From Escherichia coli (GTDB lineage Bacteria; Pseudomonadota; Gammaproteobacteria; Enterobacterales; Enterobacteriaceae), in NCBI RefSeq assembly GCF_041886205.1, contig NZ_CP169029.1: a stretch of DNA of 64,000 nucleotides, one strand, 5' to 3'. Made by a program: the position numbers. How positions within the stretch are numbered: position 1 is the first letter of the stretch; every line of letters begins with the position of its first letter. Positions 24,701-27,700 of the stretch are shown in pieces.

Positions 24701-27700
24701 TCGCCATTCTGATAGTTATGTTCACCCACGCCAACATAGGCCAGCACATGATCGGTATTGGTAATCGCCACCGCATCGGCGTGAATGTCATCGCGAATAA
24801 TTTCACAAACTTTGCGTAATGACTCGCTATTGACATGGCGAAACAGAGGTAGCGTTTTGTTGGCGATATCCAGCGCCAGCTTGGCCTGCCGCGCGGCGCT
24901 GGCCTCTTTTTCGCCCTCAACGCTTTGTACCAGCAACACAATAAAGCCGATACAGACGCTGCCGAGGATCATTGGAATGCCGATTTTAGAGACGATATCG
25001 ATCCCCAACGCGGTAGTTGGTGCCCAGACAATCACCAGAATCATGGTCAACGTTTCGCACAACATGCCGCCGAGAATACCGACGCGCCAGCGCTGCGCTT
25101 TGGGGATTTTCAGGTTGATCCAGCCCGATATACAACCCGCCAGAATGCTGGTGATAAAGCAGGGGATCGCCGTCACGCCGCCGATATCAATTAAATAACG
25201 GTGAATACCCGCAATCACGCCGGTAATGATGCCCACCCACGGGCCAAACAGAATCCCGCCTGACATCACCGCGATAATACGAACGTTCACCAGCGAGCCT
25301 TCTACGGGAACGCCGGACCAGGTGCTGAACAGGGCAAACAGCGAGAAAATGGCGGTAACGGCGAGCAGCTCTTTCGGTGAGTGTGCCGACTTGTGCAACA
25401 GTTCGCGAAACAGGCGGATACGGATGAGAAAGAACAGGCAGATAAGCATTAACGCTGCCCGATCGAAGACCGCCAGCAGCATGTTGAATATTTCGTGCAC
25501 GGGTGACTCTGAATAAGGATTAAACCTCTATGATAGGTAACCTGAAGGCTGATGACCAGCAGGCCGTTTTTGAGGAAAAACCACAATTTTAAAAGGGGAT
25601 TGAAAGATAAATGGTGTATTAGCAATGCATCTCTTGATAATGCCCATCTGGTTGGTAAATTTATTGAAATTATAATGTTAATAAAATGAGTGGTTATTTT
25701 CTTGTTGTCGTAGATAAATTTCCTGTTTTTAAAGTGGAGTTCCTCATTTAAAGCCATTGATAAAAATGTTCTAAAACGCTGGACAGACAGAAATTAATCA
25801 GGCTATTTTCAAAACAGCCACCATCGTGGCAGCGTCGCTCGGACGGTCCGGGCGCTAACGTTAATCTGAGGAAATTATGGCTGACACTCGCCCTGAACGT
25901 CGCTTTACGCGCATTGATCGTCTCCCGCCCTACGTTTTTAACATTACCGCTGAACTGAAAATGGCTGCGCGTCGGCGCGGTGAAGATATTATCGATTTCA
26001 GTATGGGTAACCCGGACGGTGCGACTCCGCCGCACATCGTCGAAAAATTATGTACGGTGGCCCAGCGCCCGGACACGCATGGTTACTCCACGTCACGCGG
26101 CATTCCGCGGTTACGTCGCGCCATTTCCCGCTGGTATCAGGAACGCTACGACGTTGAGATCGACCCGGAATCAGAAGCCATCGTCACCATTGGTTCGAAA
26201 GAGGGGCTGGCACACCTGATGCTGGCGACGCTGGATCATGGTGACACGGTGCTGGTGCCGAATCCAAGTTACCCGATCCATATTTATGGCGCGGTGATTG
26301 CCGGGGCGCAGGTACGCTCAGTGCCGCTGGTGGAAGGTGTCGATTTCTTCAACGAACTGGAGCGAGCCATTCGTGAAAGTTATCCGAAACCGAAGATGAT
26401 GATCCTCGGCTTCCCGTCAAACCCAACCGCGCAATGCGTGGAACTGGAGTTCTTCGAAAAAGTAGTGGCGCTGGCGAAACGCTACGATGTGCTGGTGGTC
26501 CATGACCTGGCCTATGCCGATATCGTCTACGATGGCTGGAAAGCGCCGTCAATTATGCAGGTACCGGGTGCACGCGATGTGGCAGTCGAGTTCTTTACGC
26601 TGTCGAAAAGCTACAACATGGCGGGCTGGCGTATCGGCTTTATGGTTGGCAACAAAACGCTGGTCAGCGCCCTGGCTCGTATTAAAAGCTATCACGATTA
26701 CGGCACCTTTACGCCGTTGCAGGTGGCGGCGATTGCGGCGCTGGAGGGCGATCAACAGTGCGTGCGCGACATTGCCGAACAGTACAAACGCCGCCGTGAT
26801 GTATTGGTTAAAGGGCTGCATGAAGCGGGCTGGATGGTTGAAATGCCGAAGGCTTCGATGTATGTCTGGGCGAAAATCCCGGAACCATATGCGGCCATGG
26901 GATCGCTGGAATTTGCCAAGAAGCTCCTTAACGAAGCGAAGGTTTGTGTCTCGCCGGGGATTGGCTTTGGCGACTATGGTGATACGCATGTTCGCTTTGC
27001 ACTGATTGAAAACCGCGACCGTATTCGTCAGGCCATCAGAGGGATTAAAGCGATGTTCCGTGCCGACGGTTTACTACCCGCCAGCAGCAAACATATTCAC
27101 GAAAACGCGGAATAAACACCGTCGTCAGAAATGCAAACAGGAGCCTGATGGCTCCTGTTTTTCATTGCACAGTTTGCTTTTAGATCATCAGGGCAAAAGT
27201 ACCGGCCCAAACGATGACCATAAAAGAAATGCCCATAAAGAAATATTTCACTTTACATCTCTCCGCGTAATTACTGTTACGCCTGAATGACTTCATTACA
27301 CCTGATACAGTGAGTTGACACCGGGCAAAGCGACCTTAAAAGCCCTGTATTTTACCGTGGGCATCACCCCAGAATTCTGAGCTAAACTGCTCGAGACGGC
27401 GCTAATGTACGCCTAAAACTGAAACGAGACAAGAGGCATTTTCTTATTTACTTTTAGTAACTTACAAGTGTCTCATATCGGCGACAGTTTAATTTCTGAC
27501 GGTAATAATTAGATATTCAGCGAAGGAAAAAACCTTAAGAAAAAAGCCATAAAAACCATGAGGTTATTATGGCCGATTTGAGGAGGGAAAGAGTAAGAGC
27601 AGTTTGTTAAATGTACAACGACGATTCTCCCACCGGGCGCGTTTTAAAGCGACGGTGGATCCAGAGGTACTGCTCCGGTGCGCGCATGATCTCTTTCTCG

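Follow-up and report, generated by a model that had tools for sequence, protein, structure and literature searches.

ypdK of Escherichia coli, an annotated small membrane protein gene with a predicted promoter of its own, a structured leader, and a probable terminator in common with alaC

In Escherichia coli, some small single-pass proteins regulate membrane complexes or form subunits of them; examples are AcrZ, KdpF, CydX, MgtS, MgrB, and PmrR. The small members of the pairs AcrZ-AcrB, KdpF-KdpABC, CydX-CydAB, MgtS-MgtA, MgrB-PhoQ, and PmrR-LpxT resemble YpdK in being shorter than 50 amino acids, having one helix with few charges, and being conserved among enteric bacteria; this grouping with YpdK is a functional class and not a homologous family, and no sequence similarity is claimed. 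The kdpF and cydX genes lie within the operons of their partners, whereas ypdK appears to be monocistronic, without an operon or a neighbor linked to it. Type I toxins, the other described class that comes close, are typically patchy in distribution, often multicopy, and fast-evolving. The tisB, dinQ, shoB, and zorO mRNAs carry, as ypdK does, a short hydrophobic open reading frame (ORF) behind a long structured 5' untranslated region that touches the ribosome-binding region. In contrast to these four, ypdK is a core, single-copy gene under strong purifying selection, and an Rfam scan detected no antitoxin RNA at its locus. The closest described system is YpdK of E. coli K-12 itself, which has the same sequence, the same position between alaC and lpxP, and the same GTG start as the gene studied here, with no differences. 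Hemm et al. (2008) included YpdK among their 18 small membrane proteins, as cited in PMC3009722.

We examined ypdK in a 64,000-nucleotide stretch of E. coli DNA (contig NZ_CP169029.1), referred to here as the window. The gene and its two neighbors are as follows.

27180..27251, minus strand: ypdK coding sequence (translation, coincidence with the RefSeq coding sequence, NCBIfam NF033437, and protein conservation in 76 species)
25877..27115, plus strand: alaC (alanine transaminase), the convergent neighbor of ypdK and the sole neighbor kept across genera
27607..28527, minus strand: lpxP, the upstream co-oriented neighbor of ypdK in Escherichia

The reading frame starts with GTG at 27251..27249 and stops with TAA at 27182..27180. 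Its minus-strand codons (27251..27180) are GTG AAA TAT TTC TTT ATG GGC ATT TCT TTT ATG GTC ATC GTT TGG GCC GGT ACT TTT GCC CTG ATG ATC TAA, which translate to VKYFFMGISFMVIVWAGTFALMI followed by the stop, giving a product (M)KYFFMGISFMVIVWAGTFALMI of 23 codons. A sequence-only reading had proposed a 23-codon, GTG-start ORF at 27180-27251 on the minus strand, lying between alaC and lpxP and matching YpdK. Translation bore out the ORF, the flanking genes confirmed its placement, and comparison with the K-12 annotation gave an exact match in coordinates, strand, and sequence. In MG1655 (NZ_CP032667.1), the RefSeq coding sequence ypdK, "membrane protein YpdK" (WP_010723117.1), occupies positions 3181..3252 of the extracted locus (L001), which correspond to 27180..27251 of the window on the same strand. 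A nucleotide query with the 621 bases around ypdK returned 100% identity to E. coli K-12 MG1655 and to many other strains. Of 5426 complete E. coli genomes, 5422 contained the region, at a median of one copy each. Among 5423 E. coli records, 4771 had exactly the same 72 nt of ypdK, and the remainder showed 95 to 99% identity. Matches of the region to plasmid records were mostly to chromosome-sized or large non-mobilizable records and were uninformative.

At the protein level, residues 1 to 23 matched positions 1 to 23 of the 23-position NCBIfam equivalog NF033437 (YpdK) with 57.5 bits (E = 9.4e-16), the curated cutoff being 30 bits. Public protein collections contain the exact 23-amino-acid peptide, encoded on at least 1000 contigs, under the name "MULTISPECIES: membrane protein YpdK." Searches of Pfam, PADLOC, and PDB with YpdK gave no match. 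The size of a 23-codon ORF is uninformative on its own, because a mechanical listing yielded 72 ORFs of at least 20 amino acids within 4.5 kb around ypdK. The ypdK ORF nevertheless stands beyond chance because of its RefSeq coordinates, the NCBIfam equivalog match, and the protein-type conservation in 76 other species. The feature is the already annotated K-12 gene ypdK, and nothing in it differs from K-12 YpdK. As an overall explanation of the locus, an annotated small membrane protein gene with its own promoter, leader, and terminator is very probably correct. The comparative anatomy of ypdK leaves current understanding unchanged; an annotated microprotein gene below the usual ORF cutoffs was recoverable from the sequence alone.

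To follow the gene across genera, we fetched 80 loci, one per species, ranging from Escherichia to Pantoea, Erwinia, and Serratia. The neighboring AlaC protein was used as the anchor, and the locus search was therefore independent of ypdK itself. One locus stopped short of the ypdK region, leaving 79 assessable, and 76 of these carried an intact ypdK-like ORF convergent to alaC. The gene was missing from the alaC-adjacent position in Erwinia endophytica and in one Serratia marcescens assembly (2 of 79 loci), and in one Candidatus Pantoea assembly it was disrupted by a 1-nt frameshift in a T-run. All 76 intact loci had GTG as the start codon, and the ORF was 23 or 24 codons long. The 68 distinct nucleotide sequences encoded 39 distinct peptides, and the frame was open in all 68. 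The mean column entropies at codon positions 1, 2, and 3 of these sequences were 0.55, 0.17, and 1.11 bits, respectively, so that the third position was about seven times as variable as the second. Residues Y3, M6, G7, S9, G17, T18, and F19 were invariant, and K2, W15, and M22 were nearly so. Across the loci, each of the invariant residues G7, S9, G17, and T18 was encoded by all four synonymous codons. The pN/pS ratio was 0.26 in the ypdK frame, with pS at 0.6 and thus near saturation, versus 2.3 in the other open frame. This pattern of codon positions and synonymous changes indicates that selection acts on the protein rather than on an RNA or DNA element, and the YpdK protein is under purifying selection across Enterobacteriaceae and Erwiniaceae. 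All 23 residues of the Escherichia protein recur unchanged in Citrobacter, Salmonella, Trabulsiella, and Pluralibacter, genera with an AlaC identity of only 94 to 97%. YpdK ranks among the most conserved E. coli small proteins without a known function.

The region upstream of ypdK contains a conserved block in 75 of the 76 loci, and the sequence of the single remaining locus ends at that point. In the alignment, the block reads cTTGt, a spacer of 17 to 18 nt, TA(C/A/G)ATT, and AGCGCC; it is highly conserved and generally lies about 150 nt upstream of the GTG, with a range of about 70 to 190 nt over the loci. We infer that it is a sigma-70-type promoter of ypdK.

27404..27432, minus strand: predicted sigma-70-type promoter (conserved upstream block and published tiling-array transcript start)

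The predicted promoter in the window consists of a -35 hexamer TTGTCT (27432..27427), a 17-nt spacer, and a -10 hexamer TACATT (27409..27404), followed by the GC-rich AGCGCC. A consensus promoter scan missed it because only 8 of 12 positions match. Supplement S3 of a UV tiling-array study lists a same-strand transcript at 2494795-2494997 over ypdK (2494943-2495014) (PMC3009722). This transcript begins 148 nt ahead of the GTG, which places its 5' end near 27399 in the window, 5 nt past the -10 hexamer. The same study reports the transcript as increased after UV by a log2 value of 1.06, or about twofold (PMC3009722). A LexA-type CTG-N10-CAG box that might explain the UV induction was sought in 27100..27500, and none was found. 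For translation, Supplementary Table 1 of PMC12350097 lists ypdK as "Ribo-ret only," outside its proteomics and PIRT-TIS sets, so that the protein-level evidence from the sources consulted is indirect. Our reading of this entry is that the start site was seen by retapamulin ribosome profiling.

A hairpin separates the convergent stop codons of alaC and ypdK.

27138..27157, unstranded: hairpin CAGGAGCC-ATCA-GGCTCCTG, between the stop codons of alaC and ypdK

On the minus strand, it folds with -19.5 kcal/mol (z = -4.9), and on the plus strand, with -19.4 kcal/mol (z = -4.3). With an A-run and a T-run at its flanks, the hairpin has the form of an intrinsic terminator whichever strand is read. Other genera have a hairpin at the same position with different stems, for example, GGCGCC, GGGAGCC, and GGGGCGAC. 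The retained position with changed stems, together with folding on either strand, makes it probable that the hairpin is a bidirectional terminator common to alaC and ypdK. The terminator scan did not report the hairpin at 27138..27157, probably because its stem runs into the flanking A/T runs, and the one terminator-like call of that scan falls inside the ypdK ORF.

The other side of the gene is variable. Among the AlaC-anchored loci, the upstream position is occupied by lpxP in no groups other than Escherichia, Citrobacter, Salmonella, and the Enterobacter group; other genera have genes for an MFS transporter, a dipeptidase-like protein, an HlyD-like protein, and others there. Given these changing upstream neighbors, ypdK would be an independent unit whose constant link is to the 3' end of alaC. 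The gene looks monocistronic and would form a unit of about 270 nt with its own promoter, a structured leader, and a terminator common with alaC. We also considered neighboring genes as indicators of a partner. A functional partnership with LpxP was ruled out, as the adjacency is limited to some genera. The sensor kinase YpdA was considered as a tentative candidate; ypdA, alaC, and ypdK are often contiguous, but Salmonella and several other loci have ypdK with no ypdA within 3 kb. No operon or conserved neighbor indicating a partner of YpdK was found among the AlaC-anchored loci, in which the constant neighbor, alaC, is convergent and encodes a cytosolic enzyme.

Between the reported transcript start and the GTG lies a leader of about 148 nt, which was folded with RNAalifold on 24 Enterobacteriaceae sequences.

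27252..27399, minus strand: 5' leader of the ypdK mRNA, about 148 nt (RNAalifold on 24 Enterobacteriaceae and pair counts)
27370..27359 with 27323..27312, minus strand: long-range leader helix H2 (RNAalifold, 24 Enterobacteriaceae)
27282..27277 with 27270..27265, minus strand: leader helix H3, a hairpin abutting the Shine-Dalgarno sequence (RNAalifold, 24 Enterobacteriaceae)
27398..27395 with 27259..27256, minus strand: possible weaker closing helix that pairs the 5' end with the spacer between the Shine-Dalgarno sequence and the GTG (RNAalifold)
27259..27264, minus strand: Shine-Dalgarno sequence GGAGAG, with its GGAG core 9 nt ahead of the GTG (seen in the sequence and in orthologous loci)

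A GGAG was present upstream of the GTG in all 76 orthologous loci at a distance of 6 to 10 nt (mode, 9 nt). In the leader helices, 93.8% of cells were paired, compared with 26 to 45% when the partners were slid, a control that somewhat favors the structure, which came from this very alignment. Thirteen pairs had changed on both sides, compared with 6.3 ± 1.4 in shuffles, and none of 500 shuffles reached 13. The Erwiniaceae have an analogous 5' hairpin and a helix ahead of the Shine-Dalgarno sequence, with compensatory support for the 5' hairpin in that alignment only. A 5'-proximal hairpin seen by eye in the Enterobacteriaceae leader was discarded, as its median z of -0.44 made it no more stable than shuffles. 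The Rfam scan of 26500..28000 on both strands gave no family at E ≤ 0.09, and its two weak matches were to unrelated eukaryotic or plastid families. The one mildly new observation is the conserved, structured leader, absent from Rfam, with its own predicted promoter and the GTG start kept throughout. The helix ending at the Shine-Dalgarno sequence, with its covariation, and the discriminator-like AGCGCC may be parts of a control of translation by the leader, and the GTG found in all 76 loci may belong to the same design of low-level, tightly controlled expression. Whether the leader is an undescribed cis-regulatory RNA gating YpdK translation, as a thermometer, a target of a small RNA or protein, or a ligand sensor, is a speculative point that we consider rather unlikely. 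The whole 270-nt transcript could also be a dual-function RNA.

The sequence-only reading had further described YpdK as a single-helix protein, and the composition of the peptide upholds this prediction. After K2, the only charged residue, come 21 uncharged and mostly hydrophobic residues (positions 3 to 23), and the GRAVY value is 1.73. YpdK is accordingly predicted to be an integral membrane protein whose single transmembrane helix comprises about 21 hydrophobic residues. By the positive-inside rule, the charged end of such a helix is expected on the cytoplasmic side, and K2 of YpdK is thus probably cytoplasmic, in an N-in/C-out orientation. A supplement to PMC11188072 labels YpdK a TRANSMEMBRANE small ORF and gives clusters in Citrobacter, Kosakonia, Erwinia, Pantoea, Escherichia, and Yersinia. 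Positions 3, 6, 7, 9, 17, 18, and 19, which are invariant, and positions 2, 15, and 22, which are nearly so, are distributed all around the helical wheel and form no single face. Conserved residues on all sides fit a helix that is packed on several sides, in a complex or an oligomer. YpdK would then reside in the inner membrane and either self-associate or pack onto a larger partner, a membrane protein or complex.

By analogy with AcrZ, KdpF, CydX, MgtS, and MgrB, we tentatively suggest, at somewhat less than an even chance, that YpdK may serve a larger inner-membrane protein as a single-pass accessory or regulatory subunit. With 23 amino acids and one predicted helix, it falls within the single-helix, at most 50-amino-acid range of this class; a genomic or regulatory link to a partner, the other mark of the class, was not seen when the AlaC-anchored loci were compared. 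PDB chains searched with YpdK gave no match in any solved structure, and the accessory-subunit mechanism therefore draws on analogy only. A function, partner, or phenotype of YpdK was not found in the searchable literature. Two studies mention ypdK in other contexts: one uses the gene to mark where a prophage is inserted (PMC6667211), and the other names it as an attention feature when modeling resistance by machine learning. Handles for studying the gene are the invariant GTG, residues G7, S9, G17, T18, and F19, its own predicted promoter, the structured leader, and the probable terminator in common with alaC.

The main rival to an accessory-subunit role is a type I toxin-like one, as for ibs, shoB, tisB, dinQ, and zorO, in which the peptide would depolarize the membrane and would be repressed by its leader and perhaps by an antisense RNA. 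We consider this improbable. A hydrophobic peptide of 23 amino acids is what such a gene would encode, and the leader of about 148 nt has conserved helices, one of which abuts the Shine-Dalgarno sequence, with possible pairing of the 5' end to the Shine-Dalgarno-GTG spacer. The retention of a weak start codon in 76 of 76 loci and the roughly twofold UV induction in one tiling-array study (PMC3009722, supplement) point in the same direction. However, ypdK is a single-copy, syntenic gene, and its protein is nearly invariant across two families. Its presence in 5422 of 5426 E. coli genomes and its cross-genus synteny are the opposite of a patchy or multicopy distribution with rapid turnover. The conservation is also residue specific (G7, S9, G17, T18, and F19), which suggests specific packing over generic hydrophobicity. 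No nearby antitoxin small RNA family or other credible Rfam match was found in 26500..28000 on either strand, although an antisense RNA of an undescribed kind may still exist, and 27100..27500 holds no LexA-type CTG-N10-CAG box. An accessory-subunit role for YpdK, though tentative, is the reading that we prefer.

The start site was a further point of comparison, since some annotations read the product as a 38-amino-acid protein, MKSFRRNSNYAERCKVKYFF...LMI, that begins at an upstream in-frame ATG (27296..27294). The mechanical ORF listing likewise gives the ypdK frame as a 38-amino-acid, ATG-start ORF at 27180..27296. Depositions from E. coli and Shigella include an 18-member cluster of 33- to 39-amino-acid forms, and identical copies of the 38-amino-acid sequence are found on 661 contigs. 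However, the extension is Escherichia specific. An upstream in-frame ATG was present in only 24 of the 76 loci, at inconsistent positions, and in 34 of the 76 an in-frame stop codon lies no more than 5 codons upstream of the GTG. The extension also crosses the Shine-Dalgarno sequence and helix H3, both of which are kept as RNA and not as codons. Ahead of the ATG there is only an AGGTG, at a distance of 2 nt, compared with a GGAG 9 nt ahead of the GTG. The NCBIfam model spans only residues 17 to 38 of the longer form, and the RefSeq annotation gives the 23-amino-acid form. The comparative data appear to have largely refuted the 38-amino-acid form, which we regard as highly improbable.

Least credible of all is that the ORF is untranslated and incidental, conservation of the region being owed to RNA or DNA, such as a small RNA or the terminator region of alaC: the transcript is of small-RNA size (about 270 nt, with the structured leader making up over half) and ypdK is not in the proteomics set tabulated in the supplement of PMC12350097, but third codon positions vary about seven times as much as second positions, invariant amino acids have as many as four synonymous codons among the loci, all 68 distinct sequences keep the frame open for 23 to 24 codons behind a fixed start and a Shine-Dalgarno sequence, and a Ribo-RET start site is listed in that same supplement. 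With the 23-codon protein as the preferred product of ypdK, the start shows one variation among the loci. An in-frame ATG is located two codons ahead of the GTG in seven loci, from Kosakonia, Phytobacter, Leclercia, and relatives; the exact N terminus may therefore differ in some genera, and the product in these seven loci may be MNVKYFF....

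The ypdK gene, which encodes a membrane microprotein between alaC and lpxP, has a conserved promoter-like block of its own, followed by a structured leader (5' UTR). The features discussed here, in window coordinates, are as follows.

27252..27432 (-), promoter-like block and leader of ypdK
27253..27258 (-), ATG-TAA, a minimal start-stop in the K-12 spacer between the Shine-Dalgarno (SD) and the GTG
27249..27251 (-), GTG start codon of ypdK
27180..27296 (-), a 38-aa, ATG-start form of ypdK

The block consists of TTGTCT, a 17-nt gap, and TACATT, followed by AGCGCC. This last GC-rich element, 3' of the ypdK -10, has a putative likeness to the discriminators of stringently controlled promoters. 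The leader is about 148 nt long, twice the length of the ORF that it precedes. Its helices are supported by covariation, and one of them ends at the SD. A comparison with Rfam placed the ypdK leader in no family.

The GTG start was kept in all 76 species with an intact ypdK-like ORF among the AlaC-anchored loci, despite synonymous sites within the ORF that are near saturation. Its constancy against this background suggests that either a weak start codon or an RNA contact is being selected for. Within the SD-GTG spacer, the GATG is kept across most Enterobacteriaceae, and a pairing of this motif with CGUC at the leader's 5' end is predicted. A single-nucleotide difference brings the spacer ATG into frame, two codons 5' of the GTG, in seven genera. 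The 38-aa form is found in some of the E. coli and Shigella annotations on deposit, labeled "putative membrane protein" or "hypothetical protein," and is probably a start-codon misannotation.

A few loci depart from the usual arrangement. In E. coli NCTC9040 (NZ_LR134247.1), IS1A occupies locus positions 392..1089, at about window position 27168, with the alaC/ypdK terminator hairpin on one side and the stop codon of ypdK on the other, and thereby cuts ypdK off from its native terminator. In "Candidatus Pantoea haifensis" (L073, about 4299..4362), a T homopolymer in ypdK carries a 1-nt frameshift, which may reflect either a pseudogene or a mistake in the assembly. No ypdK was found at the position beside alaC in Erwinia endophytica and Serratia marcescens. 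In Serratia bockelmannii, the alaC-ypdK distance is 728 nt rather than the usual 40 to 90 nt or so.

The sensor-kinase gene ypdA adjoins alaC on its upstream side in most of loci L002 to L081, and ypdA, alaC, and ypdK therefore often form an uninterrupted run. In the Salmonella loci and several others, ypdK is present but no ypdA lies within 3 kb. One idea is that YpdK acts as a putative modulator of YpdA. For the neighboring lpxP, the mechanically called ORF has 328 aa from a TTG (27607..28593, -), a length that nothing observed here supports, and the RefSeq protein is shorter, at 306 aa (27607..28527).
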